64,000 nt of DNA from Patescibacteria group bacterium (GTDB lineage: Bacteria; Patescibacteriota; Dojkabacteria; GCA-002793355). A program made the position numbers and the translations under genes. The notes beneath the pieces are model-generated. The model saw only the letters and a program-made list of their open reading frames with translations. It did no database searches and was not told where the DNA came from. The DNA is taken from assembly GCA_016860985.1 (NCBI GenBank), contig BOKM01000001.1:2310-66309 (forward strand), read 5' to 3'. Of the stretch, positions 29,829-49,432 are shown piece after piece (position 1 is the first letter of the stretch; each line of letters starts with the position of its first letter).

Positions 29829-29829
29829 T

Positions 29830-30276: not shown

Positions 30277-30349
30277 AGCACTGATTATAGCATAAAATTA
30301 TTGATAAATAGGTTTGGGAGTATAAGGACTTTAGAGTACAATATTCTAT

Positions 30350-30673
30350 ATGATATATTCAAAAGAAGATCAAGAATTGATCCAAAAAGCAATTAGTTTC
30401 TTAGTTGAGAACTTCAATAAATCAGGTAACAACAATAAGCCTGTTATCCTTCATAGCATTCGGCTTGCGATGCGCCTTTACGACAAAGGGAAAAAGGCAT
30501 CAGTAGTTGTTGGAGCTCTTCTGCACGATTTGTTGGAAGATACACAGGTTACATTGTCTAACATTACGTCGAAATTCGGTATTGTACATAGTTCTTTTAA
30601 CGCTTGTAGCTCATTTTCCACTCGTTTTACAAAAACCTCTATCTCCATATATTCATTATACAGTGATTTATAA
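30350..30673 (+). pseudogene. truncated HD-domain (RelA/SpoT-type hydrolase-like) gene fragment
   Basis: HSIRLAMRL...ALLHDLLEDT are HD-domain metal ligands, but the ORF ends after 107 aa in low-complexity sequence where the family normally continues. Probable remnant. Confidence 0.4.
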
Positions 30674-30833
30674 TAGTATTATCCTAAGCTAATCTGAATT
30701 CCAACATGCGCCCAAGTCCTTATTGGTGTAGATGATTGGGATTCAGTAATACAGGCCGATTTAAACCTGACGTTTGACATTGGCAAGCTGCCTAAATTTA
30801 TCTTAGAGTAGCTAGAGTATATTCCCATAGTAA

Positions 30834-33104
30834 TTGTTGTATAATTCTTATATGTGGAAACTTCTTAAGAATTGGCGTGAAGTTCTAATTAAGTCCGACT
30901 TCGAGGTAAACCAAAAACTAAAACACTTGCTAGAAACAACCACAGGTTCGATTCTTGTAAGTGGGGACAGAGGTGTAGGCAAAACACATATTATTCAAAC
31001 CATCTCAAGGGAAAAGTCAGATTCAATGATATTTATTTGGCTAAATACAATAAAGATAAACGCAGTAAGTGAAAAGGGAACCAATTTGCCAGACCAAGTT
31101 GAAAGCCTGAACATTCTATTTATATTGAAATTTCTTATTGAGGAACTTTCCTCTTTAGGCTTGCCGGAACAAAAAATCTTAAAGAGCATAAAAAAAGATT
31201 TATATATTACTGAAAAAGCTATCACCTCAGATTCTAAACTTAGTGTAAACAACTCTGGGGCAGAGGTCGGTTATCGACAGTCAGTAAACGAAAAATGGCA
31301 AGGATACACTACAGCACAACTATCTTCAACACTTGCGAATTACTTAGTTGATGTAAAGGGTCATATAGGTATGACTGGCTTTGAGAAGATTATGCACGCT
31401 TTTGGTTCTGTCGGGATTGGAATCGGAAACGCGTTCCAAAAGTTTTTCAATAAACGAACTGAGCGAATTGTCTTTGTATTCGATGAACTTGATGATATTG
31501 GTGACATTAATTTGCTACTTGACCTAATTAAAAAGTTCAAAAATCTTTTCATGAGATCTGGCATTAGCTTTTTATTTATTACCTCTTCGAATGTATATGA
31601 GACTGTGACAAACCTAGAATCAGCTTTTACCTCAGGACAAGAAGACAAATATCGAACAATATTTTCAGACATAGTTTACATTCGTAGATATACTATATCC
31701 ACGTTGACCAAACATATCAGCAATCTGACTTTAGTTAAGTCAGATAATTTTGATGCTTTGTCCACATATTTAGCAATTGAGGCTAAAGGAAATATCTATA
31801 ATTTGAGACGTACAATAGCAGCAAGAGAAGTTTTTGATGGAGACGAAATAGTACTCAGACATTCAGATATTGATAAGAAATCGGTAAGTGTAGTAAATTA
31901 TGCATTTAGAATCGGAGAATTACTAATAGAAAAGTGTGGATTTGAGCAATATATCGAAGATCTGTTATATATGACGCTTTATGAATATACCTCCGATCTT
32001 CTGCTTTATTTGTCAGGCACAAGGCAAGAAAGTAGAAAGACACGCTTTGAACTGTATCAGAAAAACACTAGTTATACGAAGTCAAAAAAGAATTTAATAG
32101 AAAAATTTATTAACGAATTTTTTGAAACACTATCTGTAATCATTACATCGCAACCAAACGGAATTAACTTTGGTGAGGAATCCCAAACTATTTCGTGGGA
32201 GGATGTAAAAGAAAAAATTGACAGCAATATTGACGTGTTGGATCTTTTATGGTCAATTACTCCAAGCCATCGTCGTTTCTACGAGAAGTACCTAAGTGTC
32301 ACTGAGATGGTAAAAATTGTATTCAAGCAAGATGATATCCTAAAATCTTCTCAATTAAGGGAACACGAAATGATTAATGATGAAACTTCGCTAGAAATCA
32401 AGAATGCACTTGAGCAGGCAACACTTACAGTACGTAAAGGATCTTCTTCTGTGACAGAGAGGGGAACGGCAATTCTCACTGATATTGAAAACAAGATAAA
32501 TAAGTATTGGGATTTTTCAAAAGGTATTCTGCTAAGAAAGGATACAGACGGAATCGAGTATAATCGAACTGAGCATACTGTCAAATTTAATCAGCAAAAT
32601 GCGATTACATCTTCACCAACAACCAGATTGTATACTCACCTACTTGAAGGTTCATATAAAAGCAAATTTGACATAGAATATACGGTGAAGACATCCTACA
32701 ACAAGTCAACTGTTGATGTTCTACTCTATTTTGCTGAGCAATATACCGGGACAGCGTCAGACGCATACTATATTGTAAGAATTACTGCACAAGATCCACC
32801 TTCAGAATTTAATAGAGCTGGAATTTTGCTTAAGGATTCCAATATTGAGTATGATAAAGCTTGGTATCTCATTAACCAACCAGTTAAAGTCAAGGCAATT
32901 GGTTTAAACGAACCCTATACCATAAGAATAAAACTTGATAAAGGAATAATAACATTATATTTAAAGAAACAATCGAAAGAAAAGTACACATCAACTGATA
33001 CTGTAGAATCGTATCAAGTAAATCAAGAAAGTAGTTTTAGTCATATCATCACGACAAGTCAAGGACATCCAATAGAGATTTTAAATATAATAAAGAAGGA
33101 ATAG
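30834..33104 (+). CDS. P-loop NTPase, KAP-family-like (756 aa)
   Basis: Walker A GDRGVGKTH and a distant Walker B RIVFVFDELDDIGD about 170 aa downstream (KAP-like spacing and hhhhDxLD form), with a long non-catalytic C-terminal half. Confidence 0.5.
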   Translation: MLYNSYMWKLLKNWREVLIKSDFEVNQKLKHLLETTTGSILVSGDRGVGKTHIIQTISREKSDSMIFIWLNTIKINAVSEKGTNLPDQVESLNILFILKFLIEELSSLGLPEQKILKSIKKDLYITEKAITSDSKLSVNNSGAEVGYRQSVNEKWQGYTTAQLSSTLANYLVDVKGHIGMTGFEKIMHAFGSVGIGIGNAFQKFFNKRTERIVFVFDELDDIGDINLLLDLIKKFKNLFMRSGISFLFITSSNVYETVTNLESAFTSGQEDKYRTIFSDIVYIRRYTISTLTKHISNLTLVKSDNFDALSTYLAIEAKGNIYNLRRTIAAREVFDGDEIVLRHSDIDKKSVSVVNYAFRIGELLIEKCGFEQYIEDLLYMTLYEYTSDLLLYLSGTRQESRKTRFELYQKNTSYTKSKKNLIEKFINEFFETLSVIITSQPNGINFGEESQTISWEDVKEKIDSNIDVLDLLWSITPSHRRFYEKYLSVTEMVKIVFKQDDILKSSQLREHEMINDETSLEIKNALEQATLTVRKGSSSVTERGTAILTDIENKINKYWDFSKGILLRKDTDGIEYNRTEHTVKFNQQNAITSSPTTRLYTHLLEGSYKSKFDIEYTVKTSYNKSTVDVLLYFAEQYTGTASDAYYIVRITAQDPPSEFNRAGILLKDSNIEYDKAWYLINQPVKVKAIGLNEPYTIRIKLDKGIITLYLKKQSKEKYTSTDTVESYQVNQESSFSHIITTSQGHPIEILNIIKKE

Positions 33105-33190
33105 GACGTCTTCTTCGTGAATATTGCGGTTATCTTAAAGGTAAAATCCTCCATGGTGTATAATAAATGTATTGATGCTTTTCGCATTAA

Positions 33191-33275
33191 TCATATTCAC
33201 GGAAATTCGATATCATTCAAAAAATATTCATAGAAATTTAAGGAAATTCAAAAAAATATTCATGGGCATTCAAAG
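33191..33275 (+). repeat. iteron-like direct repeats (ATTCAAAAAA(A)TATTCAT x2 plus partial copies) upstream of the ParB-methyltransferase gene
   Basis: 33215-33231 and 33246-33263 are near-identical 17/18-mers 14 nt apart. Partial copies at 33191-33210 and 33268-33276. Confidence 0.5.
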
Positions 33276-33278
33276 TGT

Positions 33279-33310
33279 TTGTGTGTAACGCGCAAATACA
33301 ATTGTATAAT
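33279..33310 (+). promoter_or_regulatory. candidate sigma70-type promoter (TG-TATAAT -10 element) for the ParB-methyltransferase operon
   Basis: TGTATAAT at 33303-33310, 18 nt upstream of the ATG at 33328. A weak TTGTGT -35-like hexamer lies 20 nt upstream. Confidence 0.35.
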
Positions 33311-33327
33311 TTTTTACTAACAATTTA

Positions 33328-34656
33328 ATGGACAATTCACTAACCATCGTCAATGTTTTAATTGACGACTTAATTAGTGCCGACTACAATCCTCGCAAGT
33401 GGGATCAGAAGGCTTTAAACGACCTAAGAGCGAGCATTAAGAAGTTCGGTCTGGTTGACCCTGCTCTAGTAAATGGTGCAACCAATCGCAAAAACATTGT
33501 CATTGGTGGCCACATGCGTATTGCAGCAGCAAAATCACTAGGTATTACCGAAATGCCTGTTGTTTATCTAAACATTCCTGATTTAGAGAAGGAAAAGGAG
33601 CTTAATCTTAGACTGAATAAAAATCAGGGAGAGTTTGATTTCAAACTACTTGCACACTTTGCAGAAGATTTTCTTACTGACATTGGTTTCAATTCAGAAG
33701 AGATGGACTCCATCTTTGATTGGGAAGACGATACACCTGAAGTATTCGATCTTCAAAAGGAACTTGAGAAACTCAACATCAGTAAAATTGAGATAGAAAA
33801 GGGAGATGTCTGGCAACTTGGAGAGAATCGATTAATGTGTGGTGACTCCACAATTCAAGAAGATATTCAAAAGCTACTTAATAACGAGAAAGCTGACATG
33901 GTTATGACTGACCCACCGTATATTCTTGATTACTTGCATGGGAAAACTAAGCACGGTAAAGCGACAGAAGGATTCGGTTATAAACGAGACAGAAAGTATT
34001 TAGAAACAGATTCCATACCTGAAAACTTCACAGAACTGTGGATGAAGAATATCTCAGAAGTAGCCAAAGAGAACTTTCATATAATTGTCTATGAAAATTG
34101 GAAAAACATTAGGACTATTTGGGCAGAGATGGAAAAGTACTGGAAAGTTAAGAATATGATTGTCTGGCATCTACCTAACCGCAACCAAAGTTTTGCAGCA
34201 AAGTACAAATTCTTTTCTAAACATGATATTGCTATGGTTGGCTCTTCTTATACCGAAGAGGCCTTTAATCTTGAAATGGAGGAGAAACTCCTACAAAACG
34301 AGTATGAGACTGCACTCTATGCAATATCAGGTAAACCACATTGGGAAGGCTACGAAAAAGGTAAGAAGATTCAGCCAACTGACTTTCTTGAATACAATGC
34401 TTCAGACGAGAAACATTCGGGTCAAGGAATTGTCTTTGGTACAAAACCTATTGAGATCCTAATTCCATATATCAAAGTACTTACTAAGCGTGAAGATTTA
34501 GTAGTAGAACCATTTGGTGGAAGTGGATCTACACTTATTGCGTGTCAAAAACTAAAAAGGAGATGTTTTATCATGGAAAAATCGCCAGTATATGCTGAGG
34601 TCATTCGCAACCGATGGGAGAAACTCACTAAACTTAAAGCTACGAAGATAGTGTGA
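33328..34656 (+). CDS. ParB-like nuclease domain fused to an N6/N4 DNA methyltransferase (phage-type orphan methylase)
   Basis: N-terminal ParB/Srx motif (LVDPALVNG...IVIGGHMRIAAAK), central MTDPPY, and C-terminal EPFGGSGST (motif I). About 78% aa identity to 56133-57479. Confidence 0.85.
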   Translation: MDNSLTIVNVLIDDLISADYNPRKWDQKALNDLRASIKKFGLVDPALVNGATNRKNIVIGGHMRIAAAKSLGITEMPVVYLNIPDLEKEKELNLRLNKNQGEFDFKLLAHFAEDFLTDIGFNSEEMDSIFDWEDDTPEVFDLQKELEKLNISKIEIEKGDVWQLGENRLMCGDSTIQEDIQKLLNNEKADMVMTDPPYILDYLHGKTKHGKATEGFGYKRDRKYLETDSIPENFTELWMKNISEVAKENFHIIVYENWKNIRTIWAEMEKYWKVKNMIVWHLPNRNQSFAAKYKFFSKHDIAMVGSSYTEEAFNLEMEEKLLQNEYETALYAISGKPHWEGYEKGKKIQPTDFLEYNASDEKHSGQGIVFGTKPIEILIPYIKVLTKREDLVVEPFGGSGSTLIACQKLKRRCFIMEKSPVYAEVIRNRWEKLTKLKATKIV

Positions 34657-35036
34657 AAATTTCTTTAAAGAAACAGGTTCTTGAACAACTTAAGAAGACT
34701 CCGATAATTCAAGTAACCTGCGAAAAACTAGGAATAGCACGTGCTACCTTCTATCGATGGAAACAACGTGACCAGAAGTTCTCAACTTCGGTAGACAAGG
34801 CTTTACTTGAAGGCTCACTGCTGATTAACGATATGGCTGAGAGTCAACTCATTACGCAAATCAAGAATGCTAACATGACTGCAATTATCTTCTGGCTTAA
34901 GTACCACCATAGAGGATATACAAAAGAAGTTCTGGCTACTCTACCAAATCAGCCGACAAAAATTAAGGTGGAGATTATAAGAAGTAAATCTGATCTTGAG
35001 AATTCGGATAAGAAGGAAGTTCGTAAAGTAAGTTGA
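34653..35036 (+). CDS. terminase small subunit-like HTH protein
   Basis: GIARATFYRWKQRD (HTH) and AIIFWLKYHH. Paralog of 57476-57874. GTG start overlapping the upstream stop (GTGA). Confidence 0.5.
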   Translation: MKISLKKQVLEQLKKTPIIQVTCEKLGIARATFYRWKQRDQKFSTSVDKALLEGSLLINDMAESQLITQIKNANMTAIIFWLKYHHRGYTKEVLATLPNQPTKIKVEIIRSKSDLENSDKKEVRKVS

Positions 35037-35078
35037 TCTGCTAGATTTCTTGACGCGAAAAGAATAAAATTACATCAC

Positions 35079-38000
35079 ATGAGTGCTATCGAAAAATATA
35101 TTGAAGAAGTAATAAAGACTTATAAGACTGGGCATGCACGCGAGCATGCATATAGACCTGCGCTAGAGACTCTTATTGAAGAGATAAATCCCAATATAAA
35201 TGCAGTAAACGACCCTAAACAGCAAAAGGTGGGTGCCCCTGATTTCGTATTGCTTAAGGGGAAAACACCAATTGGTTACATTGAAGCAAAAGACATTGAT
35301 GTAAATCTGGAGAGCGAATTCAAAACAAAGAATCAATTTAATCGATATAAGTCTTCACTCAACAATATTTGTTTTACTAATTGTCTGGATTTTCATTTCT
35401 ATGTAAATGGAGAAGCAATCTCGAGAGTCAGTGTTGGAAAACTGGAAGCTGGAAAAATATCAATACTCACTGAAAACCTTCCTTTACTTGAAAGCTTGCT
35501 TGTCAATTTTACGACACTGAAGTCAATCTCAATTCGTAGTCCAAAAGAACTAGCATTCTTAATGGCTGAGAAGGCTAAAATGCTCAAAAATGTAGTCTAC
35601 TTATCGCTAAAAGAGGGATCTGAAGTGAAGGGACAGGTAGAACAACAATATGAAGTTTTTAAACAGATGTTAATCCACGACCTTTCATTGGAGCAATATG
35701 CTGATATATATGCCCAAACAGTCGCATATGGGATGTTTGCTGCGCGCTTCCATGATAAATCTCTTGATACATTTACAAGAGATGAGGCAAATAACTTATT
35801 GCCAAAATCAAATCCTTTTCTGAGAAATTTCTTTCAAACGATTGCTGGATACAATATCGATGAGCGTATTGTATGGATAGTTGATGATCTTGCAGAACTT
35901 TTCAATCACGTAAATGTCCGCGAATTGCTTGAAAATTTTGGAAAGGATACGAAAAGGAGCGATGTAATTGTCCATTTTTATGAAACTTTTCTTTCCGAAT
36001 ATGATGCAAAGATGCGCAAAGCCAGAGGTGTCTATTACACACCAGAGCCAGTCGTTGATTTCATTGTGAGAGCCGTTGATGATATTTTAAAAACTGAGTT
36101 TGGCATAACTGATGGCCTTGCTGATACAAGTAAAATTGACGTTGAAAAGGAAGTTCAGGGATTAAAGAAAAAGCAGAAGGTAAAGGAACATCGTGTCCAA
36201 GTACTTGACCCCGCAACTGGAACAGGTACATTTTTAGATCACGTTATCAAACATATCTACAACACAAAATTTAAAGGACAACAAGGTATTTGGCAAGGTT
36301 ATGTTGATGAGCACCTACTACCTAGGCTACATGGATTTGAAATTCTCATGGCAAGTTATTCAATGGCACATCTTAAACTTGATATTACTCTTGCAGAGAC
36401 TGGCTATGATTCATCTAAAGGGCAAGGGAAGCGTTTAGGTGTATACCTCACAAACTCACTCGAAGAGCCCGAAGCACATCAAAAAGACCTGTTTTCTCAA
36501 TGGCTAACGACTGAAAGTATGGAAGCAAACGAGGTGAAGAAGGAAAAGCCAATTATGGTGGTTATGGGAAATCCGCCTTATAGCGGTGAGAGTTCAAACA
36601 AAGGCAAATGGATTATGGATTTAATGGAAGACTACAAATTTGAACCAGGAGGCCAAGAAAAGTTAAACGAACGAAATCCCAAGTGGATCAATGATGATTA
36701 TGTGAAGTTTATTAGATTTGCGCAACATTATATCGAAAAAAATGGCGAGGGAATACTTGCATTTATTAATCCTCATGGCTTTTTAGATAATCCTACGTTC
36801 AGGGGAATGCGATGGAAGTTGTTATCTGTTTTCGACAAGATATATACTATTGATCTACACGGGAATACAAAAAAGAAGGAACTTACGCCCGATGGATCCA
36901 AGGACGAGAATGTGTTTGACATAATGCAAGGAGTAAGCATAAATCTTTTTGTAAAAAAGCGAGATTCAAGAAATAAGTTGGCAAATGTTTATTCTAAGGA
37001 TCTTTACGGTAAAAGAAATATAAAATATGATTTTCTGTCTACTAATAGAATTGGGGATATAAAATGGAACAAACTAGATCCCCATAATGACATGTATTTC
37101 TTTGTTCAGAAAGACTTTGAATTACTTAACGAATACGAACAAGGTATTAAGGTTAACGAGTTATTTCCAGTAAATAACGTTGGCATCGTTACTTCAAAAG
37201 ATGCGATTTTAGTTTCCGAAGATGAGGAGAAGTTACTCAAGAATGTACAAGAACATTATCAGATTAATACTGATAAAAACAAAGTTAAGAGAATTTCTTA
37301 TAGACCTTTTGATGATAGATTTGTCTATTATGATACAAAATTGATAGAGAGAGCAAGATACGAAGTAATGCAGCACTTAATAAAAGGTGCGAATTACGGA
37401 ATAATAATTCCAAGACAAGCAATTACAGACAACTATTCACACGTAAATATAACTCGGTATATGACTGACAATCGGTATCAATACAGCAATAAAGGAGTAA
37501 CAACAGAAGTTCCTCTCTATTTATACAAAGACTCCACACTACTTACAGCGACAAGAGAACCAAATCTTAGCAGAACGCTAATTACAGATATTGCCACAAA
37601 ACTAAAGCTCCAGTTTATGAACGACCATGAGCATGCAGATTCAGGAAAAGCAGGCACATTCAATCCATTAGATATTCTCGATTACATTTACGCAATCTTA
37701 CACTCACCATCATACCGAGAACGCTATAAAGAATTTCTTAAAATTGATTTTCCACGAATCCCGTTTACATCAGATCAAAAGTTATTCTGGTCTTTAGTAG
37801 AAAAAGGGAGAGAAATTCGACGATATCACTTAATGGAGCATACAAACAGCAGTTCATTAATAACACAGTACCCTGTTTCTGGTGAAAATGAAGTTATCAA
37901 CCCTAGATACTCCGATAATAAAGTTTGGATAAATGATACGCAGTATTTTGATGATGTACCTCAAATTGCATGGGGATTTTACATTGGTGGATACCAACCA

Positions 38001-38147
38001 GCACAGAAGTGGCTAAAGGATAGAAAAGGAACGAAGCTAACTTTTGACGATGTGTTACATTATCAACAGATTATTGTTGCCTTGACTAATACAGACAGAA
38101 TTATGCACGAGATTGATAGTTTGGCGATGACTTGGCCTCTAAAATAG
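35079..38147 (+). CDS. Type IIG restriction-modification enzyme (MmeI-like: N-terminal PD-(D/E)XK endonuclease + gamma-class N6-adenine methyltransferase + target-recognition domain)
   Basis: N-terminal GAPDFVLLKGKTPIGYIEAKD (PD...EAK), central LDPATGTGTF (motif I) and VVMGNPPYSGE (NPPY), about 400 aa of C-terminal target-recognition domain. 1022 aa. Confidence 0.75.
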   Translation: MSAIEKYIEEVIKTYKTGHAREHAYRPALETLIEEINPNINAVNDPKQQKVGAPDFVLLKGKTPIGYIEAKDIDVNLESEFKTKNQFNRYKSSLNNICFTNCLDFHFYVNGEAISRVSVGKLEAGKISILTENLPLLESLLVNFTTLKSISIRSPKELAFLMAEKAKMLKNVVYLSLKEGSEVKGQVEQQYEVFKQMLIHDLSLEQYADIYAQTVAYGMFAARFHDKSLDTFTRDEANNLLPKSNPFLRNFFQTIAGYNIDERIVWIVDDLAELFNHVNVRELLENFGKDTKRSDVIVHFYETFLSEYDAKMRKARGVYYTPEPVVDFIVRAVDDILKTEFGITDGLADTSKIDVEKEVQGLKKKQKVKEHRVQVLDPATGTGTFLDHVIKHIYNTKFKGQQGIWQGYVDEHLLPRLHGFEILMASYSMAHLKLDITLAETGYDSSKGQGKRLGVYLTNSLEEPEAHQKDLFSQWLTTESMEANEVKKEKPIMVVMGNPPYSGESSNKGKWIMDLMEDYKFEPGGQEKLNERNPKWINDDYVKFIRFAQHYIEKNGEGILAFINPHGFLDNPTFRGMRWKLLSVFDKIYTIDLHGNTKKKELTPDGSKDENVFDIMQGVSINLFVKKRDSRNKLANVYSKDLYGKRNIKYDFLSTNRIGDIKWNKLDPHNDMYFFVQKDFELLNEYEQGIKVNELFPVNNVGIVTSKDAILVSEDEEKLLKNVQEHYQINTDKNKVKRISYRPFDDRFVYYDTKLIERARYEVMQHLIKGANYGIIIPRQAITDNYSHVNITRYMTDNRYQYSNKGVTTEVPLYLYKDSTLLTATREPNLSRTLITDIATKLKLQFMNDHEHADSGKAGTFNPLDILDYIYAILHSPSYRERYKEFLKIDFPRIPFTSDQKLFWSLVEKGREIRRYHLMEHTNSSSLITQYPVSGENEVINPRYSDNKVWINDTQYFDDVPQIAWGFYIGGYQPAQKWLKDRKGTKLTFDDVLHYQQIIVALTNTDRIMHEIDSLAMTWPLK

Positions 38148-38192
38148 TTAGATTAGGAATAAATGACTTTAATAAGAAAGTTCTAGAAATAT

Positions 38193-38684
38193 ATGGTAAA
38201 CATACCTGATACTAACTTATTCATAGGTTCACGATTTGATCTAAGGTTAACCAATGAATCCGAATGGGCATACGCGCACGTTACAAAAAAGAGTCACCAA
38301 GAAAAACTTGGATATTTTAAAGCATTACCACCGACACATCCCAATTACATATTTTTTGAGGATACAAATCATATGTACGTGAATTGGGTAGATACACCAC
38401 AAGCAAGGTTCTACGATTTCCCAACTGGACAAGGTGTTCCTAATTTTATTCGTGTTTTAGATTTCATAGAAAAGTGGATTAAGAACCGCAAAGTGTTAGT
38501 GCATTGCGACCTTGGGGAATCTCGTAGCCCTACTACAAGCCTAACCTATTTGGCTAAACGTACTGAGATTTTACCAAACACTAGCTTTGAAGATGCTAGA
38601 AAAGAGTTTACTAAAATGTACCCAAGCTATAACCCGAGTGGAATCGCAAACTTTGTCTCAGATAATTGGAATTTGATCATATAA
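38193..38684 (+). CDS. dual-specificity/tyrosine protein phosphatase-like protein
   Basis: VLVHCDLGESRSPT is the CX5R(S/T) P-loop signature of Cys-based phosphatases. Confidence 0.7.
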   Translation: MVNIPDTNLFIGSRFDLRLTNESEWAYAHVTKKSHQEKLGYFKALPPTHPNYIFFEDTNHMYVNWVDTPQARFYDFPTGQGVPNFIRVLDFIEKWIKNRKVLVHCDLGESRSPTTSLTYLAKRTEILPNTSFEDARKEFTKMYPSYNPSGIANFVSDNWNLII

Positions 38685-38686
38685 TT

Positions 38687-40108
38687 ATGTTAACAAAGTC
38701 CGATTTTGTTGCATACATTGATTCCCCAAGGCACCTATGGGCAATCAAACACAATAAACTTACCGAAGTAGAACATAATGCATTTCTCAATCATTTGTTC
38801 GAGCAAGGATATGATGTTGAAGAGTATGGCGAAAAATATATTAGGGAAATATTGGTTCCAGAATACGAAGTTTCTAGCAACAATATCTTATTCCAACCAA
38901 CCGCCAATGATGGAGAGTTTGAAGCTCGGGCTGATGTACTGATCAAAAACCCTAAAACGAACAAATGGGACATGTACGAGATTAAAAGTTCGACAGAAGT
39001 AAAGAGACAGCACAGGTATGATGTTACGTTTCAGTCACTTGTATTTGGGAAGAATTATGAATTAGGCGAGATATTCATACTCCATCTGAACCCTGATTAT
39101 ACAAGAACCGGTGAAATCGATATTGCGAAACTTTTTACGAGAACTAATCTTACAAAAGTTGTCTCTGACTTAATTCATGAAGTCCAAATATTACGATACG
39201 AAGCGCTTGAGGTTATATCTGAAGACGACTATTCATTAGTACAGTCATGTATTCGCCCGAAATTATGCCCTTGCTTGGGAATTTGCCATCAAAACTTACC
39301 AGACTACTCCATATACGATATCAATAATCTGACAGCAAATGAAAAGAAAATTCGCGAACTGGAAAAATTGGGCTTTATTAGCATCGATGACGTTCCACTC
39401 AATTTCGCACTCTCAGAAAAACAAAGGTTTCAAGTTCAGATTGCGCAAAATAATCAAACATACATTAATTCTAATTCTATTGAGAAAAGTTTCGAAAAGT
39501 TACAGTATCCGATTTACTTTGTTGATTATGAATCGTTCAATCCGGCAATACCCATGTTTGATAGTTACAAGCCATACGACCAAATTCCATTCCAGTGGTC
39601 GCTTCACATAAAAGAAGATTTAACATCTGAATTGAAACATTATGAATTTATTGAAACACAACAGATTGATCCTATTGTTAATTTTCTAAGTGCTATGCAG
39701 GCCGTAGTCGGGACAAATGGTTCAATCATAGTATGGAACAAGGCATTCGAAGGCACGCAGAACAAAAGAATGGGGGAAATTCATTCAGAATTTAAAGATT
39801 ATTGTGAAAATATGAATTCGCGGCTATTTGATCTTATGGAAATTTTCAGAGATGGACTATACGCAGATCGAAAATTTAAAGGTAGTTATTCAATTAAAAA
39901 AGTTCTGCCAGTACTTGTACCTTCACTTAGTTACAAAGGTATGAATATTGCAGAGGGTGCGACAGCGATGGCGAGTTGGAATGATATGGTTTTCGGAAAT
40001 ACCGATGACGAACAAAAAGCACAGCTTAGGGCTGATCTTTTAAAGTACTGTGAGCTTGATACTTTGGCGATGGTAAGGATTTTCGAGAAACTCGCCGAAT
40101 TGCTTTAA
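38687..40108 (+). CDS. DUF2779-like protein (PD-(D/E)XK-type N-terminus plus C-terminal RNase-H-like region)
   Basis: EARADVLIK...YEIKSST (D/E-x-K) at the N-terminus, and YFVDYESFNPAIPMFDSYKPYDQIPFQWSLH matches the conserved DUF2779 motif as recalled. Start 2 nt after the phosphatase stop. Confidence 0.5.
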   Translation: MLTKSDFVAYIDSPRHLWAIKHNKLTEVEHNAFLNHLFEQGYDVEEYGEKYIREILVPEYEVSSNNILFQPTANDGEFEARADVLIKNPKTNKWDMYEIKSSTEVKRQHRYDVTFQSLVFGKNYELGEIFILHLNPDYTRTGEIDIAKLFTRTNLTKVVSDLIHEVQILRYEALEVISEDDYSLVQSCIRPKLCPCLGICHQNLPDYSIYDINNLTANEKKIRELEKLGFISIDDVPLNFALSEKQRFQVQIAQNNQTYINSNSIEKSFEKLQYPIYFVDYESFNPAIPMFDSYKPYDQIPFQWSLHIKEDLTSELKHYEFIETQQIDPIVNFLSAMQAVVGTNGSIIVWNKAFEGTQNKRMGEIHSEFKDYCENMNSRLFDLMEIFRDGLYADRKFKGSYSIKKVLPVLVPSLSYKGMNIAEGATAMASWNDMVFGNTDDEQKAQLRADLLKYCELDTLAMVRIFEKLAELL

Positions 40109-40146
40109 ACCCCAGACTTCATCCTTCTTTGCGTTACTTGTTGTGC

Positions 40147-40203
40147 ATGGAACAACCAACCAATACACCACTCACCTACTGCCTCTATACCAGAAAGTCA
40201 TCT
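40147..40203 (+). pseudogene. 5' remnant of a serine recombinase gene (first about 19 codons: MEQPTNTPLTYCLYTRKSS) with the conserved recombinase leader
   Basis: 40113-40146 aligns to the 34 nt upstream of both intact recombinase genes (…CAGACTTC.TCCTTCTTTGCG.TACT.GT.GT..ATGGAA). The coding similarity ends after the KSS codons, then a stop follows at 40222-40224. Confidence 0.55.
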
Positions 40204-40300
40204 ATGTTAAGTTACAAGTTTTAATAAGACCGTATTTATCCCAATTGTTGTTACAGTTCCTTCTTCAGCGTATAATTCAAGATAATGTGTTTTTGTAATC

Positions 40301-43300
40301 ATGAATACAGCCACTAAAGAGTTCATATATTGCAAACGCTGTAACGTCATCCTCCGATTGTCTAGTAATGACATGAAGGAAGAGAGTGTATCTTGTCCAA
40401 AATGTAACACCATAAATGAATTAGTTACTGCTGTATCCCCAGCGTACTCTCCTAGAAAAGTAAATTGTACGAACTGCAATTCAGTATTAATGCTAAATAA
40501 TAAGGAGCGATTACGTGGTGCTTTAATACATTGCCCAGAGTGCAAGATGGACTTCAATAACACCCTCGAGCGACTTAACGAGATTCCGGAAGAATTAACA
40601 GTTGAATCGACAGCGGATAATAATAACGAACAGTCAAATATTTCTAAGTTTTCTACTCCACCTATATACCACAACGATAGTGCTCTTTCTGAGAATACTG
40701 ATAACAACGAAGCTATTCAAAAGTCAGAAGCAAAGGTTTCGCAAATTAAGTTCGACAAAACATTTATTAAACGTTTACTTGACAAACTAAAAGTTGGGAA
40801 TGCGAGATCAATTCATCTCAATGCAGTTCCTGGTAGATCTGCCACGAGACTTGACCTGTATCAACTTTCTGATATTGATAAGGATTTGCCAAAAAACTTC
40901 CTCGACAAGTTGATGACTAACGATTCTTTTTCGTTCACGATTTCGTATGATAAAGTAAATCTCGGAGAAATTGACGATGAAGCGAAAAGAAAACTTGCTT
41001 TGATTACGAAACGATTGAACACAATAGTCATTGAAAATACAGACAGCCTTTTAGAGTATGGATTAGAGAATTTTGGTTTTGGATATCCATTACTAATCAA
41101 GAGAGATCACAATGATCCAAGCAAGGTCGTAAAAGCACCATTATTCATCTGGAATTTGAACTTAGAGAGGTCCACTCAAAATAAAAACACATGGGTTATA
41201 AAAAGAGGCGAAGATTACCCAATAAAAATCAATGAGCTTTTGATCTCTCACATAACAAAGGATGAATCAATTCAGATAGAAAAGATACCTAAAGATATTC
41301 TCGAAGATGGCATCCTGGATGAAAGTGAACTCCTTAAATTAACAAAGGTTATTTTATCCCAATTAAATACCACAAGCATCCCCTCTGAAATTAAGTTAGA
41401 AAAGTGCCCGGACGCAAAGGAGATTGATGATATCGCAAATTCGAAGCCATGGATTCAATGGAGTGGAATATTCGGCATCTATAGGTCTCAGAATGAAACA
41501 ATAATTCACAGTACTGAGGAGTTGCTTTCACGTTTAGATGAGTTTTCAAGTGAAAGTTTGACTTTAGAACCATTTCAAACATCCACAGTAACTTCAGTAG
41601 AAACAGACCCAAGCAAAGAGGAGATCGTAAACACACTAACAAAGGATGAAATAAAGTTGATCCAAGGACCACCAGGTACAGGAAAAAGCCAAAGTATTAC
41701 AGCTATTGTTTCAAATGTTTTATCCAACAATGGGAAATGTTTAATCGTATGCGAGAAGAAGACAGCATTAGATGTTATATACACGATCTTAACTAAAATA
41801 GGGTTAGGGCAATTATCCATACTTATTGACGATGTAAACAAGGATAGAAAGCTAGTAATTGAAAAAGCCAGAACAATACGAGAGAGTCCAGGAGCTCCAT
41901 ATTTCTCCCAGCGAAGTTATAATGACCTTTATGCAAAGTTTTCAGCATTGAAGGAGAAAATAAATTCAAAGTATTCTGAGTCACTAAGAAGCGTGCTCGG
42001 TGATTTAAACTGGAAACAATTAATTGGTTTGTATCTACGATATTCGAAAGAAGTTTGTTTCAACGATATTCTGGGAAGACTAAACTACAATGATTGTAAT
42101 TTCAACTACGATGAGTACTCTCTCTTGGTATCATTCATTGAGGAGGCAAGTCAACTTTATAGTGAATTGGGTAATGATTCTGAATCGGCATTTGAGATTG
42201 TAAACAAGTCGATTTTTTCAACGCGTTATAAATGGACTGAACACGAAAAATTAAAGAGCGTAACATCCGAGTATCTTGATATCATTTCTGCGTTAGAGAA
42301 ATTTACTGCAGGAAAAAAACAAGGCGAGTTTGAGAAATTTGGTGTATCAACTTTTGATGTGGATGCGATTAATAACTCACTGAGCTTAATCAATTTGCTT
42401 ATCGAATCACTCGAAAAAGCCGTCAAATCATTTAGAAAAGGAACAGGGCTCATCGGAAAGGAGTTTTGGTGCCAAAATGCTTTCACAAAATTCATAATGA
42501 GAGCAAAAGCTCTATACACAAATAAGTATAAGACTTCCCTTTTGTTGGAAAAAACCATAATAAAGCACTTTAAAGAAGCGAAGAGCTTAATCTATGGGCT
42601 TCGAAAATATAATATTTCAATTAGTGAATTGGTACAAAGTAGTAAATACGAAAGTACTGAAGAAGAGCTCTCATATATTGGGAATATTATTATTGAGGCA
42701 AACACTATCAGACTTCAGATTGAAGATCTCGCTAAATACCGAGCATTTCTTGAAGACATTGAAACGCGACTATTGAAACTTGAGTCCACAAACGTCGTGA
42801 ACTATAAGAATACTAGGCTCGCCGACATCAAAAGCCTCAGTTCACTAAACAAATTTAAGGATCAACTCAAGCTTTTGTTTGAGCGATTATCATTACATCT
42901 TGACTCATTTGAAAGTTATCATAACTGGAAATACTTTTTAGGAAATATAGATAATTATAAGACTAAACTTGTAACAGCATTTCTTGATATTCCTCCTGAA
43001 AATTGGAGAAATTTATTCATCGCATGGTATTACCGAGGAGCTTTGCATAATTTTGAGAGTAAATCGAGTATCGGATTTAATAATTCCGACACATCTCTGA
43101 ATCAATTAAGTGATTTTTATTCTGAATTGAAAAAACAACAAATTGATCAAATAAAGTTCACATGGAGTACAAATCAATTCAAGCTTTTTGAAAAAACCAC
43201 TTACAATTTCAACCTGCTTTACAATTTAAGAAAGAACCATGTTGGTCCCAAAAACTCTCTTAGGAACCTTATTGAAAAGGACTTTAATCTATTTACGACA

Positions 43301-44719
43301 ATGTTTCCAATAATCTTAACAAACCCTGCGGCGGCTAACGCCATCCTCCCTCTAAAACAAGGCCTTTTTACCGTAGTAATCTTTGATGAAGCGAGTCAGC
43401 TAAAAGTATCTGATACTTTTACGACATTCATTAGGGGCCAGTACAAAATCATTGCAGGAGACGAACACCAAATGCCACCTTCCTCTTATTTTCAAAGTAA
43501 TGCAGATTTACTGGACATTGACGAAGATGATACAAATGATGTCTTCACAGAGACTGACGAGCAAATTGCTTTGTCAGAAAGTGAATCACTGCTTCAATAT
43601 GCGACAGACTTACCACACGTTAATAAATCGTACTTAGATTTTCACTACAGATCCAATCATCAAGCCTTAATTAACTTCTCAAACAACGCTTTCTATGGTG
43701 GCAATTTAGTTACATTCCCTCATTTTGAAGTTTACAGACCAATTGAATTTAGAGCGGTAAATGGGCGCTATGAAACAAGAACAAACCCATCCGAGGTAGC
43801 AGAAATCTTGAAGATTCTTCAGATAGAGATTCACACAAATCAAAATGGGAAATACCCTTCAGTTGGCATAGCAACATTTAATATTAACCAAAGAAACTTA
43901 ATAATTGAAACACTAAACAGGGTTGCCGAAGAAGATCCCACCTTTGGAAGTAAGTTACGTGAACTGAAAGAGAACGGGTTGTTTGTCAAAAATCTAGAAA
44001 ATATTCAAGGTGACGAAAGAGATATTATTATTATTTCAACAACATATGGTATTCAGCCAGACGGAACCTTCTCCCAGAATTTTGCTAGATTAAATAGAAT
44101 CGAGGGGTATAAACTTCTAAATGTATTGATTACCCGAGCAAAACATAAACTATATGTATGCACCTCAATTCCAAAAAACAAGTACATTTCCTACCCTGAA
44201 TTAATTAAAAGTGAGGGCAACAATAAAAGAGGAATTCTTTACGCTTATTTAGCGTATTCAGAAGCAATATCCGCAGGTGATAACGATACTGCAGAAGGAA
44301 TTTTGGAATTACTAAAAACCCAAAGTTATGAAAAACCTAGAATAATGTCTGCGAACGACGGACTATCAGAATCACCCTTTGAAGAAGAAGTATACGACCT
44401 GTTATCAAAACATTTCCCTGCGGAAAAGATCATTCAGCAGCATAAAGTCGGTGGATTCCGCCTTGATTTTATAATTAAGTCCAAAATTAAGGATATCGTA
44501 ATCGAATGTGATGGTAAGGCATACCATTCCACAGAAGAAGCATATGCTTATGATATGTTTAGACAAAAGGAGTTGGAAAAAATGGGATTCATTATATATA
44601 GAATTTGGTCAACCAACTGGTTTAGAGACAAGGAATTAGAAATGAGAAAACTTTTGGGTTTTGTATCAATTACTAACAATGAAAGTCCTGAAGTATTACA
44701 AAAATCATTGCCACTCTAA
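40301..44719 (+). CDS. 1472-aa SF1B (Upf1/DNA2-like) helicase with N-terminal tandem zinc ribbons and a C-terminal DUF559/Vsr-like PD-(D/E)XK endonuclease domain
   Basis: Four CxxC pairs in the first 90 aa. Walker A GPPGTGKSQS, motif II VVIFDEASQL, motif VI VLITRAKHKLYV. C-terminal GFRLDFII...IVIECDGKAYH...FRQKELEKMGFIIYRIW fits DUF559. Confidence 0.7.
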   Translation: MNTATKEFIYCKRCNVILRLSSNDMKEESVSCPKCNTINELVTAVSPAYSPRKVNCTNCNSVLMLNNKERLRGALIHCPECKMDFNNTLERLNEIPEELTVESTADNNNEQSNISKFSTPPIYHNDSALSENTDNNEAIQKSEAKVSQIKFDKTFIKRLLDKLKVGNARSIHLNAVPGRSATRLDLYQLSDIDKDLPKNFLDKLMTNDSFSFTISYDKVNLGEIDDEAKRKLALITKRLNTIVIENTDSLLEYGLENFGFGYPLLIKRDHNDPSKVVKAPLFIWNLNLERSTQNKNTWVIKRGEDYPIKINELLISHITKDESIQIEKIPKDILEDGILDESELLKLTKVILSQLNTTSIPSEIKLEKCPDAKEIDDIANSKPWIQWSGIFGIYRSQNETIIHSTEELLSRLDEFSSESLTLEPFQTSTVTSVETDPSKEEIVNTLTKDEIKLIQGPPGTGKSQSITAIVSNVLSNNGKCLIVCEKKTALDVIYTILTKIGLGQLSILIDDVNKDRKLVIEKARTIRESPGAPYFSQRSYNDLYAKFSALKEKINSKYSESLRSVLGDLNWKQLIGLYLRYSKEVCFNDILGRLNYNDCNFNYDEYSLLVSFIEEASQLYSELGNDSESAFEIVNKSIFSTRYKWTEHEKLKSVTSEYLDIISALEKFTAGKKQGEFEKFGVSTFDVDAINNSLSLINLLIESLEKAVKSFRKGTGLIGKEFWCQNAFTKFIMRAKALYTNKYKTSLLLEKTIIKHFKEAKSLIYGLRKYNISISELVQSSKYESTEEELSYIGNIIIEANTIRLQIEDLAKYRAFLEDIETRLLKLESTNVVNYKNTRLADIKSLSSLNKFKDQLKLLFERLSLHLDSFESYHNWKYFLGNIDNYKTKLVTAFLDIPPENWRNLFIAWYYRGALHNFESKSSIGFNNSDTSLNQLSDFYSELKKQQIDQIKFTWSTNQFKLFEKTTYNFNLLYNLRKNHVGPKNSLRNLIEKDFNLFTTMFPIILTNPAAANAILPLKQGLFTVVIFDEASQLKVSDTFTTFIRGQYKIIAGDEHQMPPSSYFQSNADLLDIDEDDTNDVFTETDEQIALSESESLLQYATDLPHVNKSYLDFHYRSNHQALINFSNNAFYGGNLVTFPHFEVYRPIEFRAVNGRYETRTNPSEVAEILKILQIEIHTNQNGKYPSVGIATFNINQRNLIIETLNRVAEEDPTFGSKLRELKENGLFVKNLENIQGDERDIIIISTTYGIQPDGTFSQNFARLNRIEGYKLLNVLITRAKHKLYVCTSIPKNKYISYPELIKSEGNNKRGILYAYLAYSEAISAGDNDTAEGILELLKTQSYEKPRIMSANDGLSESPFEEEVYDLLSKHFPAEKIIQQHKVGGFRLDFIIKSKIKDIVIECDGKAYHSTEEAYAYDMFRQKELEKMGFIIYRIWSTNWFRDKELEMRKLLGFVSITNNESPEVLQKSLPL

Positions 44720-44849
44720 ATCCTTCAACGTTACTAATGTTTGGTAACTTTATTCAAGAAATTGAATCTAATAACTGCTATCCATAACTCATCGCAGTTT
44801 TGTTATATACCTACTAGACTTCCTCCCTTCTTTGCGGTACTAGTGTTGT

Positions 44850-46190
44850 ATGGAAAACACAATAAAAGTACCTGAATTACGCTACTGTCTCTATGCTCGG
44901 AAATCCTCAGAGTCTGACGAGAAGCAAGCAATGAGTATTGATAGCCAGCTTCACGAAATGAGTGATTTGGCAAAGCGAGATAATATCAACATCGTCGACA
45001 TCATTACAGAAAGCCATTCTGCTAAAGAAACTGGGCAACGACCACAGTTTAACCTTATGGTTGAAGGAATTAGTAGCGGAAAGTATAACGGCATTATAAC
45101 GTGGGCTCCAGATAGAATTTCGAGAAATGCTGGTGACTTAGGTCGAATAGTCGACTTAATGGATCAAGGCAAACTCTCACTTATTAAGACGCATTCCCAA
45201 ACATTTACCAACAACCCAAACGAGAAGTTCCTCCTCATGATTCTCTGCTCCCAAGCAAAACTAGAAAACGACAATAGAGGAATTAATGTAAAGCGTGGTC
45301 TAAAGAGTAAATGTCAGACAGGAGTAAGGCCAACAATGCCACCTCTCGGATATATTAACATCATGCGAGCAAATAGAATCTCAACAGTAATCATAGACCC
45401 AGAAAAGGCTCCAATTATTAAACAGATGTTCACGTACGTTGCTGACAAAGGACTTTCAGGAAGAACCATCCGAAAATGGCTAAGAAAAATTGGATTCAAA
45501 TCAAGAACAGGAAAAGACCTCGTTTTAAGTCTAATCTACAAAATGCTCAAAAATCCCTTTTATTATGGATATTTTAAATACGGTGAGAAAATATACAAAG
45601 GTTCACATGAACCTCTCATATCCAAACAAGTATTTGATAAAGTACAAATACAGTTGCAAACAACACCACGACAGTGGAATAAACAGCTCTACCCTTTTAA
45701 GAAGATTTGCAAATGTGGAAGTTGTGGCAGTAGTATAACTGCAGAAACGAAGTTTCGAGTAGTTCAGAATGGAGACGTTCATCCTCATATCTATTATCAC
45801 TGCAATAGGATAAATGACTATGATTGTCATGAACCCTATATAACGGAAGCTGAACTCATACAGCAACTTGTTGCTCTTATGCCACAAATCAAACTCGACA
45901 AAGAATACATTTGGAACCTATTCCAAGACGAAATCAAACGACTGAATCATCTACAACAAATAATGAATCTGAAAAATAGTGTAGCTTTTGAGACAACTCC
46001 ACATAGGAACAAGTCCAAATCCATAAAGGCGATTAGTGGAAAGGAAACCGAAATGATCAGAGATTATTTCCTACACATTCTTCAGTATGGAACACCGGAA
46101 GAAAGGCAGAACATATTAAGGGGCGTTAAGACGATATTCAAATTGAGAGATCGAGAACTAATGATCAAAAAAACGTCATTGATTACCTAA
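44850..46190 (+). CDS. large serine recombinase, paralog of 22505-23845
   Basis: Same domain signature (YCLYARKSSESDEKQ, CKCGSCGSS zinc ribbon). Identity to copy 1 is mosaic at the DNA level: about 88% in the 5' third, about 99% in the middle. Confidence 0.85.
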   Translation: MENTIKVPELRYCLYARKSSESDEKQAMSIDSQLHEMSDLAKRDNINIVDIITESHSAKETGQRPQFNLMVEGISSGKYNGIITWAPDRISRNAGDLGRIVDLMDQGKLSLIKTHSQTFTNNPNEKFLLMILCSQAKLENDNRGINVKRGLKSKCQTGVRPTMPPLGYINIMRANRISTVIIDPEKAPIIKQMFTYVADKGLSGRTIRKWLRKIGFKSRTGKDLVLSLIYKMLKNPFYYGYFKYGEKIYKGSHEPLISKQVFDKVQIQLQTTPRQWNKQLYPFKKICKCGSCGSSITAETKFRVVQNGDVHPHIYYHCNRINDYDCHEPYITEAELIQQLVALMPQIKLDKEYIWNLFQDEIKRLNHLQQIMNLKNSVAFETTPHRNKSKSIKAISGKETEMIRDYFLHILQYGTPEERQNILRGVKTIFKLRDRELMIKKTSLIT

Positions 46191-47404: not shown

Positions 47405-47458
47405 TTCGGTTCCGAAGCTTCGAACAAAGGAGTATTATATTTTCTGATTTTTAGTGGT
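47405..47458 (+). terminator. possible intrinsic terminator after the DUF805 gene (imperfect palindrome TTCGGTTCCGAAGCTTCGAAC followed by a T-rich tract), coinciding with the start of conserved-element copy C
   Basis: GTTCCGAAG/CTTCGAAC near-palindrome at 47409-47425, then TATATTTTCTGATTTTTAGTGGTTTTT. Confidence 0.3.
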
Positions 47459-47600
47459 TTTTACGTATTACAGGACTACGTTTACACATTTCCGAAAGTA
47501 CCTCTCAAAACAATCGGAGACTTGGTCACTAATTGATAGGACTGACGGGACTTGAAGGAATTCAATGCAAAATGCGGGACATGTGAGTCTGGAACATAAA
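47432..47600 (+). repeat. copy C (5' part) of the conserved noncoding element. Its 3' part (GAGACA...GACAGTATAAAAAAGAG) lies at 47830-47866 after an inserted micro-ORF.
   Basis: 47432-47545 aligns with 24612-24720. The core GATAGGACTGACGGGACTTGAAG is at 47538-47560. Confidence 0.55.
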
Positions 47601-47646
47601 AGCACTTAATATTGACTACGCTGGCATTTATATTGTACAAAAATAA

Positions 47647-47811
47647 ATGAAAGACAATTCTGTAAAAAAATTTTTAATACTAGTTGGTGTAGGCGCAGTG
47701 ATTGGATATGGAGTATTAGGTGACTTTGAAGGTGCATTCAGGGGAGGATGCGGTGGTGCTGTATTTGGCTTTTTCGCTGCATTAATTGATGACCAGTTAA
47801 AAAATTCTTAG
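47647..47811 (+). CDS. 54-aa glycine-zipper membrane micro-protein (not in the ORF track because it is under 60 aa)
   Basis: MKDNSVKKFLILVGVGAVIGYGVLGDFEGAFRGGCGGAVFGFFAALIDDQLKNS is one TM helix with GxxxG repeats, sitting between the two halves of element copy C. No clear Shine-Dalgarno sequence. Confidence 0.25.
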   Translation: MKDNSVKKFLILVGVGAVIGYGVLGDFEGAFRGGCGGAVFGFFAALIDDQLKNS

Positions 47812-47884
47812 GTCTGTTATTTTTTTATCGATATTAAACGAGACAAATGGGACAGTATAAAAAAGAGAAATATTGAATTGCTAA

Positions 47885-48607
47885 TCAGTTATTCTTCTCA
47901 CTTGCAATCTCATTTAATGCTTCTCTCGTAAAATCATTAATATTATTAAGAATACTTTTCCTGACCAGATAATCAGTTAGATCATTAGTATCAGATTGAA
48001 ATTGACTCAATTGATACTTCATCTCTGCAGTGATTACCATTTTTACATACTCAAAAGTCGAATCGTTATTGATTGGATTATGCTTTTCTTTATTAAAGTA
48101 GAAATCATTACCATCGTAAGACCAGCCAGACCTTGCTTTAATCGCGTTGACCAGAGAATTAATCAATTCTGAATTTTGATAACGTGAATAAGTGCGAGCA
48201 CTGCGTAACAACATTTGAATCGAGTACTTCACATCTTCAGTAATAACCCATTGTGTTAAAGTTTCTTGCTTTCTTAGATTTTCTATATTCTCATTCGACC
48301 ACTCGCAGTTTTGAAGAATTAAAGCAGTGACGTGAATAGGGTTTGATGTTCTCTTCACGGTCTCAAATATTCTTTTTGCATCAACATCAGTAAGTTGGTT
48401 AAAAGGCTCACGATATCTTAACCAATTAACTATATAATTTAATGCTTCCTCGTGTGATTTACCTGTCTGAGTAAGAGTCTTGTAAGACGCCATAGACTGG
48501 GTATAGACTGACCATTTTAACGAAAAAGTGATTCGAGGAATAAGGTATATGGCCGTGATGAGTACTAATAGGAATATAAACCACCCCCACATGCAGTATT
48601 CAAGCAA
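47885..48607 (-). CDS. hypothetical protein with an N-terminal TM anchor
   Basis: 240-aa ORF. N-terminal WGWFIFLLVLITAIYLIP. Confidence 0.4.
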   Translation of the reverse strand: MLEYCMWGWFIFLLVLITAIYLIPRITFSLKWSVYTQSMASYKTLTQTGKSHEEALNYIVNWLRYREPFNQLTDVDAKRIFETVKRTSNPIHVTALILQNCEWSNENIENLRKQETLTQWVITEDVKYSIQMLLRSARTYSRYQNSELINSLVNAIKARSGWSYDGNDFYFNKEKHNPINNDSTFEYVKMVITAEMKYQLSQFQSDTNDLTDYLVRKSILNNINDFTREALNEIASEKNN

Positions 48608-48700
48608 TTTAATTATAACTTTTATACTTAATTAGTAATCGCGTCAATACAACGACGTTTTGGTTTATCAATAATGCAGCTGGGGGTATATAATTGAATC

Positions 48701-49423
48701 GTGTCATTGCAGAAAACAACGATAATAGATACCAAGTACAACTTCCAAGCAGAGACTGAACCTCTCGACGCTGACAAATACAGCAAAACACTTCAAGAAT
48801 ACCATCGATTACTCTGGAGCAAACCACTTCCAAGGGGAAAGATGTTTGAGCTATCAAAGATTGGTCAAAACAGGCTTTATCATAAATCTGAGTTAGGTGA
48901 AGTTACTCTATCAAGTGACAGAGCAATTGCGACTTTTTCCCGATGGAAGAAAATGAGCCGTATAGTTAATATGATTCCCAGAGAGAAGATTACGGAATTC
49001 GTTAATACAACCGAGACAATCGGAGCTATTATGATTTGGCCGAGTAATAGAATCGGACAAATGACAACAATCAATGGAGAACGTGGATTTAACAGAAAAA
49101 TTAGTGACCGTTTAGACTTAACTATTGAATGCATTAGGCGCTACTATTTGGGGATTCCAAGTCCGCTTTATGTAGTATTTAAAAGATACGCTAGCTTCTT
49201 TTCTTTGTTTGGTGACTTTCGCGGATACATTGATTTCTTTCTACTCCAAGATGCAGTTTCTACTGATTATTTGAATGTAAATACTTCGCAACCATTCGAT
49301 AATTTCGAATCACAACCACTACCAAAGAATGTTGATGAGTATATTGAATATATGGAGAATACAATTGAGTTTGTTAAAGCAAGAAATCGAAGGATTGAGC
49401 AATATTCGATAAATTTGCAATAA
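48701..49423 (+). CDS. hypothetical protein (first gene of a two-gene unknown operon)
   Basis: 240-aa ORF. The next gene starts 10 nt after its stop. Confidence 0.4.
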   Translation: MSLQKTTIIDTKYNFQAETEPLDADKYSKTLQEYHRLLWSKPLPRGKMFELSKIGQNRLYHKSELGEVTLSSDRAIATFSRWKKMSRIVNMIPREKITEFVNTTETIGAIMIWPSNRIGQMTTINGERGFNRKISDRLDLTIECIRRYYLGIPSPLYVVFKRYASFFSLFGDFRGYIDFFLLQDAVSTDYLNVNTSQPFDNFESQPLPKNVDEYIEYMENTIEFVKARNRRIEQYSINLQ

Positions 49424-49432
49424 TATATCTAC

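Follow-up and report, generated by a model that had tools for sequence, protein, structure and literature searches.

The locus considered here raises the question of how the first codons of a large serine recombinase gene came to lie, parted from the rest of that gene, directly ahead of a long helicase-nuclease gene in a patescibacterial genome, and what, if anything, they still do there. The window analysed, a stretch of 64,000 nucleotides, carries two complete genes of this kind on its forward strand, rec1 (22505-23845) and rec2 (44850-46190), each headed by an intact copy of a short upstream motif (22469-22504 and 44814-44849, respectively). The two genes are 91% identical in nucleotide sequence, and both encode proteins of 440-odd amino acids with Resolvase, Recombinase, and Zn_ribbon_recom domains that match the phrog_95 integrase family. 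Between them on the same strand lies a feature of 115 bases, consisting of a promoter-like region and an open reading frame (ORF) of 25 codons, which was taken in the original prediction to be a recombination scar; that interpretation is partly supported by the analysis described here. The feature, hereafter the stump, is very probably a non-functional pseudogene fragment left by the illegitimate deletion or replacement of a resident recombinase gene of the type found in the related loci L002 and L192.

The stump and its intact counterpart

Recombinase-like similarity spans positions 40110-40203, starting two bases past the stop codon (40106-40108) of a gene for a DUF2779 protein and ending at codon 19. 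Its first part (40110-40146) is a relic of the recombinase upstream motif, as judged by alignment to L002 and L192 and by family-wide motif statistics, in which block 1 reads CCAGACT (40112-40118; family form CTRGACT) and block 2 reads GCGTTAC (40131-40137; family form GCGGTAC or GCGTCAT). The ORF runs from an ATG at 40147 to a TAA at 40222-40224 and is translated as MEQPTNTPLTYCLYTRKSSMLSYKF. Its codons 1-19 (40147-40203) align with the N-terminus of an L002/L192-type large serine recombinase, including the YxLYxRKSS catalytic-serine motif, while codons 20-25 and the stop codon are unrelated to recombinase. Of the resolvase catalytic domain, recombinase domain, and zinc ribbon that characterize a functional large serine recombinase, the stump thus retains 19 homologous codons only.

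The similarity is real. When the rec2 5' region (44813-44912) was compared by the Smith-Waterman method with all 200-nt tiles of the two strands of the window, it scored 54 at the stump and 28 at the next unrelated tile (z = 17 against 5000 shuffles), so that the resemblance did not fall below chance, and an independent repeat search clustered the stump with the 5' copies of rec1 and rec2 (families D6 and D8). Its degree had been put at about 80%, but a gapped global alignment gives 69% identity to rec1 and rec2 (68 of 99 columns). Nor is the leader the same as that of these neighbours, as had been supposed, because the stump stems from a distinct allele: its best match is L002:9963-10057 (85 of 95 positions, 89.5%, E 4e-29), which covers the upstream region and codons 1-19 of a recombinase beginning MEQTTNTPLTYCLYARKSSESD and sharing 74% protein identity with rec1 and rec2. 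To L192, 82 of 95 positions (86%) are identical. The 60 nt flanking the stump on each side show background similarity of 46-50%. The junction is not an assembly artefact of this window alone, since a Logan contig (DRR258782_12645) is 100% identical over window positions 28687-45032, junction included, and ten further contigs from other sequencing runs also carry it.

The intact counterpart of the stump was found through its neighbour. A search with the DUF2779 protein returned a relative at 98%, present on 16 contigs, and another at 86%, on a single 26-kb contig, L192, which encodes an nSTAND NTPase, a ParB-methylase, the small and large terminase-like proteins TerS and TerL, a type IIG restriction-methylase, a DSPc phosphatase, and DUF2779, and on which the motif and an intact recombinase gene begin two bases past the DUF2779 stop codon. 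L192:6359-11518 and window 35044-40203 form one collinear blastn block on the forward strand, 92.6% identical over 5161 nt, that ends at 40203, i.e., at codon 19; within it lie, by their domains, the type IIG restriction-methylase (35079-38147), the DSPc phosphatase (38193-38684), and DUF2779 (38687-40108) genes, all on the same strand. Past codon 19, L192 runs on into a recombinase that is identical to that of L002 at 113 of 117 amino acids over the assembled part, whereas in the window the next sequence is the region ahead of the helicase-nuclease gene (40204-40300, forward strand), which has no match in any other locus examined. The stump thus has an intact orthologue at the corresponding genomic position, which bears out its identification as the 5' end of a third recombinase gene, and the break proposed to lie inside that 5' end can be placed exactly after codon 19. 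As the left border of the stump is identical in L192, this border is native and the only break is at 40203/40204. The search that had been suggested for a genome without the segment from 40.2 to 44.8 kb therefore succeeded for the left side, which is undamaged in L192, but not for the right, as that contig stops 351 nt into the recombinase gene.

It had also been suggested that the helicase block was simply inserted into a recombinase gene. A mobile segment made up of the helicase gene and rec2 would then have entered at codon 19/20 and displaced the 3' part further downstream, and such an event would account for the abrupt end of the 5' fragment and for the foreign DNA behind it, which carries a recombinase gene of its own. 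However, tblastn searches of the 64-kb window with the L002 recombinase and rec2 returned no 3' remainder or other recombinase fragment down to E = 20, no relation to recombinase is seen in the sequence that follows the next conserved repeat (47596 onward), and rec2 is complete, of another allele, and equipped with an upstream motif of its own. A split gene is therefore scarcely credible; as no 3' fragment is present in the window, the recombinase gene was removed or replaced from codon 20 onward.

To the right of the break, and between the stump and rec2 as originally described, lies the helicase-nuclease gene (40301-44719, forward strand), encoding a 1472-aa protein with DUF4011, AAA_11/AAA_12, and MTES_1575/DUF559 domains. 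It matches the single-gene candidate defence system PDC-S37 (PADLOC, 2.4e-130) and Hhe, and is cargo. Its only close homologue (99%) belongs to strains that share this junction, all others being at most 62% identical, and homologue searches did not recover the original left context of the gene. The possibility that 40204-40300 is a retained left-end signature of an element (AGACCGTAT compared with GAGACAGTAT) was considered and rejected, the alignment being unconvincing.

As a separate observation, helicase-nuclease homologues of about 60% identity adjoin recombinases of this family in six loci (L087, L102, L091, L103, L100, and L093), in three of which DUF2779 genes are also nearby. The order in L102 is recombinase, helicase, a 403-aa gene, DUF2779, and tRNA-Asn, and in L091 the helicase gene is followed directly by DUF2779; in the window, the helicase and DUF2779 genes flank the stump in the reverse order. 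This recurrence hints that helicase and DUF2779 may form a linked system.

The upstream motif and the cargo slot

A motif stands ahead of the recombinase gene in about 65 of 80 Patescibacteria loci, consisting of CTRGACT, a gap of 12-13 nt, and GCGGTAC or GCGTCAT, with the ATG 9-13 nt further on. It persists down to 45% recombinase identity, and a search of 1.36 Mb with a loose pattern yielded only about one copy for each locus. In standard loci, it starts 0-7 nt past the TerL stop codon; in L006-L013 and L023, it stands ahead of small non-recombinase ORFs. Its spacing is that of a sigma-70-type promoter, with TRGACT, 17 nt, TAC..., and an ATG 6-10 nt past the second hexamer in most of 71 copies. 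This geometry would fit a promoter for leaderless or near-leaderless mRNA, with a second hexamer that is poor, as it is in the GCGTCAT class.

A variant of the motif, TGGACT-17-TAAAAT, follows TerL, with the ATG of a cargo gene 7-8 nt on in three of four cases and 27 nt on in the fourth. It is found in the window at 35040-35078 (after a truncated TerS gene) and 59320-59376, and at L192:6355-6392 and L002:3781-3818; the cargo genes behind it encode a type IIG enzyme, a type I HsdM, and a type ISP enzyme (the 27-nt case). L192 and L002 share TerL and the variant (85% identity) on one side and the motif and recombinase (89%) on the other, while the cargo between is unrelated, which indicates a slot for defence cargo between TerL and the recombinase gene. 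The motif may be read as a promoter-like element bordering this slot.

The original prediction favoured a recombinase-associated rearrangement. In a site-specific form of this reading, the stump would be an att-like or cassette-boundary site at which a serine recombinase inserted or exchanged the helicase block. Module homology among rec1, rec2, L001, L002, and the stump does always start 0-3 nt from the left edge of the motif, and the wholly different TerL-to-recombinase cargoes of L192 and L002 have their borders at motif copies. But everywhere the distance from the end of the upstream gene to the motif is 0-15 nt, so that tight borders follow from compact intergenic regions, and the motif also heads small non-recombinase ORFs. 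The left border of the stump is native, and its sole break lies in coding sequence, 66 nt past block 2, with no inverted-repeat att-like structure there. An att site would be expected as an imperfect inverted repeat of 40-50 bp, centred on a dinucleotide, at the element border; a pattern search over 1.36 Mb returned no inverted partner half-site beside the motif, for which reason it is not regarded as an att site, and the L192-orthologous block crosses it unbroken. That the stump arose by site-specific recombination is thus highly improbable. A related candidate, in which the motif would be an att half-site with its partner in a tRNA-like remnant, was rejected because there is no inverted partner and the resemblance is confined to the hexamer CCAGAC.

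There is likewise only a very slim chance that the motif copies, that of the stump among them, are sites for a dedicated motif-directed exchange of defence cassettes in the slot between TerL and the recombinase gene, with a large serine recombinase serving an integron-like platform and the stump recording an exchange that misfired. Were this so, it would amount to an integron-like platform in satellite-like elements of Patescibacteria.

Two other properties of the leader region were noted. At 22485-22545, at 44830-44890, and in most related loci, inverted repeats pair the region of block 2 with codons 3-10, and the loop between them contains the start codon. The sequence of the stem varies from locus to locus, the single-sequence folds have a mean z of -1.4, and RNAalifold applied to the alignment gave no consensus RNA structure. 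In several distant loci (L050, L059, L074, L075, L076, and others), DnaA-box-like sequences (TTATCCAC or TTACCAAC) occur 10-20 nt upstream of the motif; the motif copies of the window are without them.

Decay of the stump

The ten further contigs with the same junction (L182-L191) come from other sequencing runs and are 97.5% identical to the window over 37603-46111. In these sister strains, the ATG of the stump has become ATA, and GAC in block 1 of its motif has become GTC. The stump differs at 7 of 115 nt (6.1%), compared with 14 of 1422 (1.0%) in the DUF2779 gene (Fisher p = 5e-4), and the helicase gene differs at 56 of 4422 (1.3%). The stump thus changes faster than its neighbours and has acquired a disabling change in relatives, as is expected of a pseudogene or neutral relic. 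Of these arguments, start-codon loss and the faster rate are the stronger and the motif changes alone are weak evidence of decay, because conserved motif positions are changed upstream of the intact recombinase of the L182-type strains also. That recombinase is itself divergent, with 8.7% differences between rec2 (44850-46111) and L182:14803-16064, about as much as between rec1 and rec2, against 1.0-1.3% in the flanking genes, a contrast that may reflect an exchange of alleles, or gene conversion, between copies of the recombinase.

These observations bear on a further alternative, that the stump was retained as a promoter, its motif driving or co-driving the helicase-nuclease gene and its 25-codon ORF being an incidental leader. 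The geometry of the motif described above is promoter-like, the motif precedes non-recombinase genes in L006-L013, the variant with consensus TAAAAT heads different cargo genes directly after TerL, and no terminator-like sequence separates the stump from the helicase ATG. Against this, the stump is the sole copy among about 70 in which a T of block 1, constant elsewhere, is replaced by C, this block is altered further in the sister strains, and the rate of change of the region is six times that of the genes beside it. The helicase gene, moreover, has a better sigma-70-like site of its own (TTGTTA-17-TATAAT, 40248-40276), the best in the 5.4-kb region scanned, of which the spacer is altered in the sister strains and both hexamers are unchanged. 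A promoter function for the stump is accordingly considered unlikely, and its interpretation as a decaying pseudogene fragment is preferred.

A tblastn search over 80 related genome loci found no stump-like N-terminal fragments, and a motif-based search of related loci returned two relic motifs upstream of intact recombinase genes, at L034:7889 and L057:3032. The former (7889-7950) consists of the motif followed by about four codons of an L054-type recombinase and a stop, and the latter (3032-3090) is a motif without an ORF, 385 nt ahead of an intact motif.

The mosaic island and the origin of the junction

The recombinase has 480 relatives among the genome contigs; most of the 80 examined are labelled as metagenome-assembled genomes (MAGs) of Patescibacteria (CPR), and the closest relative, with 82% amino acid identity, is in a Dojkabacteria MAG. 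A near-identity DNA search with window positions 38-48 kb against plasmid and phage collections gave no match. More than 25 related loci keep the gene order ParB-like methylase, TerS-like HTH protein, TerL (phrog_38), and recombinase, and in most of 40 related loci scanned, a minus-strand tRNA gene lies 0.1-3 kb downstream of the recombinase, being tRNA-Ser in the closest clade and tRNA-Gln in many others. An integrase beside a tRNA gene, as in element arrays, is therefore seen in the relatives and not in the window itself. Modules of ParB-like methylase, TerS, TerL, large serine recombinase, and opposite-strand tRNA recur in numerous Patescibacteria genomes, e.g., in L003, L005, L016, L019, L021, L022, and L056, and the window has a corresponding segment at 56133-59312. 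No capsid, portal, or tail genes were recognised among the few flanking proteins scanned near the module, which suggests that these are satellite-like or domesticated elements; some module loci are listed as viral contigs in IMG/VR (L162-L181). The literature searched contained no description of this Patescibacteria module family or of its motif.

Downstream of the recombinase genes is a conserved non-coding segment of about 190 nt, present in the window as degenerate copies at 24586-24773 and 47409-47595 and as a partial one at 18490-18551. In L001, the counterpart of this segment leads into a called tRNA-Ser gene on the minus strand, which it enters at the 3' end; the L002 counterpart closes with tRNA-3'-like sequence where the contig stops. 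The three degenerate window copies align with this tRNA-adjoining segment, and there is no intact tRNA within the 64 kb, beyond which the right end of the island lies: ARAGORN and Rfam called none in the window and gave only chance-level matches in the repeat segments, below gathering thresholds.

The module that bears the stump begins with a ParB-like methylase gene (33328-34656) and a truncated TerS-like gene (34653-35036), both on the forward strand. Homology to TerS2 is lost at 34909, and at 34909-35040 the large terminase gene is missing, though it is present in L192, in L002, and elsewhere in the window (57861-59312); the loss of TerL and of the 3' end of TerS is a second scar in the same mosaic region. 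The cargo of the island is largely defensive and includes type IIG and type ISP restriction enzymes, an OLD-family nuclease, a type II restriction-modification system, and the helicase-nuclease. Taken together, the window reads as a decaying, mosaic island of several such modules.

Several further features of the island were recorded. Positions 18552-24773 hold a short module with type II restriction-modification genes (Dam-like and N4/N6 methylases and a DUF6996/6997 restriction enzyme), PIG-L, and DUF4145, with rec1 behind them; it contains neither ParB-methylase nor terminase genes and appears to be a further island member in reduced form. The intervals from repeat segment to ParB-methylase are nearly equal, 24774-33348 measuring 8575 nt and 47596-56171 measuring 8576 nt, and share no DNA or protein similarity except one 34-nt match, so the equal length may be a coincidence. 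The region from 47.6 to 56 kb is independently confirmed by one exact-protein match. Two tandem 31-nt direct repeats (ATATTCAcgGAAATTcgAtAtcATTCAAAAA) at 33193-33254, upstream of the ParB-like methylase gene, could be binding sites.

Within this setting, the origin of the junction can be outlined. The ancestral order would have been ParB-methylase, TerS, TerL, the cargo (type IIG restriction-methylase, phosphatase, and DUF2779), and, directly after DUF2779, the recombinase gene. A single deletion or replacement, non-homologous and not site-specific, would then have taken out the recombinase gene from codon 20 onward, so that what was left came to abut the sequence ahead of the helicase-nuclease gene, behind which stands the complete rec2 of another allele. 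The most economical route would be the fusion of neighbouring integrative elements, with a module of the L192 type becoming joined to one of the rec2 type. If the lost part was organised as in L002, the deletion would have extended over about 1.27 kb of recombinase sequence, then over a small gene and the conserved repeat segment, and into the next element at its left edge, some 2 kb or more in all. No undeleted right-hand parent was found, nor a close helicase homologue outside the junction-carrying strains, and for this reason the size of the deletion, and whether it occurred in a tandem array or the gene was replaced by incoming DNA, are what we infer. The stump would now be idle; the helicase gene has a promoter-like site of its own.

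On this reconstruction, the stump is a dated scar of two integrase modules that were once adjacent, one of which was lost, and it helps in reading the region as a mosaic of successive gains and deletions. It also proved useful as a marker, having led to the sister lineage in which the arrangement is intact (L192). In itself it is of little importance, and the promoter-like motif and the cargo slot of the relatives are matters separate from it.

Comparison with known systems

The integrases of phiC31, Bxb1, A118, and PLE are large serine recombinases of temperate phages and satellites. Pfam and PHROG matches place rec1, rec2, and the parent gene of the stump beside them, with Resolvase, Recombinase, and Zn_ribbon_recom domains and membership of phrog_95; the stump differs in that its 19 codons, although they include the catalytic-serine motif, cannot encode an enzyme.

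The slot between TerL and the recombinase gene, with its unrelated cargo in L192 and L002, resembles the hotspots of P2-like prophages and P4-like satellites, in which a variable anti-phage slot lies between conserved element genes, by the integrase (Cell Host Microbe 2022, PMC9122126). The element family and the type of recombinase are unrelated, however, and the stump is a by-product of slot turnover, not a part of the hotspot mechanism.

The closest parallel for the fragment is provided by the tycheposon islands of Prochlorococcus, which lie beside tRNA genes and have fragmented integrases and partial tRNAs scattered through them (10.1101/2020.12.28.424599). Successive integrations at one tRNA push older elements inward, and a minority of tycheposons use large serine recombinases (10.1101/2020.12.28.424599). 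Like these islands, the window has module segments in repeated copies and an integrase fragment, and its degenerate non-coding segments may represent tRNA-3'-like ends. Unlike them, its host belongs to the Patescibacteria and its core consists of ParB-methylase, TerS, TerL, and serine recombinase genes, in contrast to the tyrosine integrase and replication genes of the tycheposon core. The stump is thus another instance of an already described type of relic, an ordinary trace of the turnover of genes in a presumably mobile island of defence functions.
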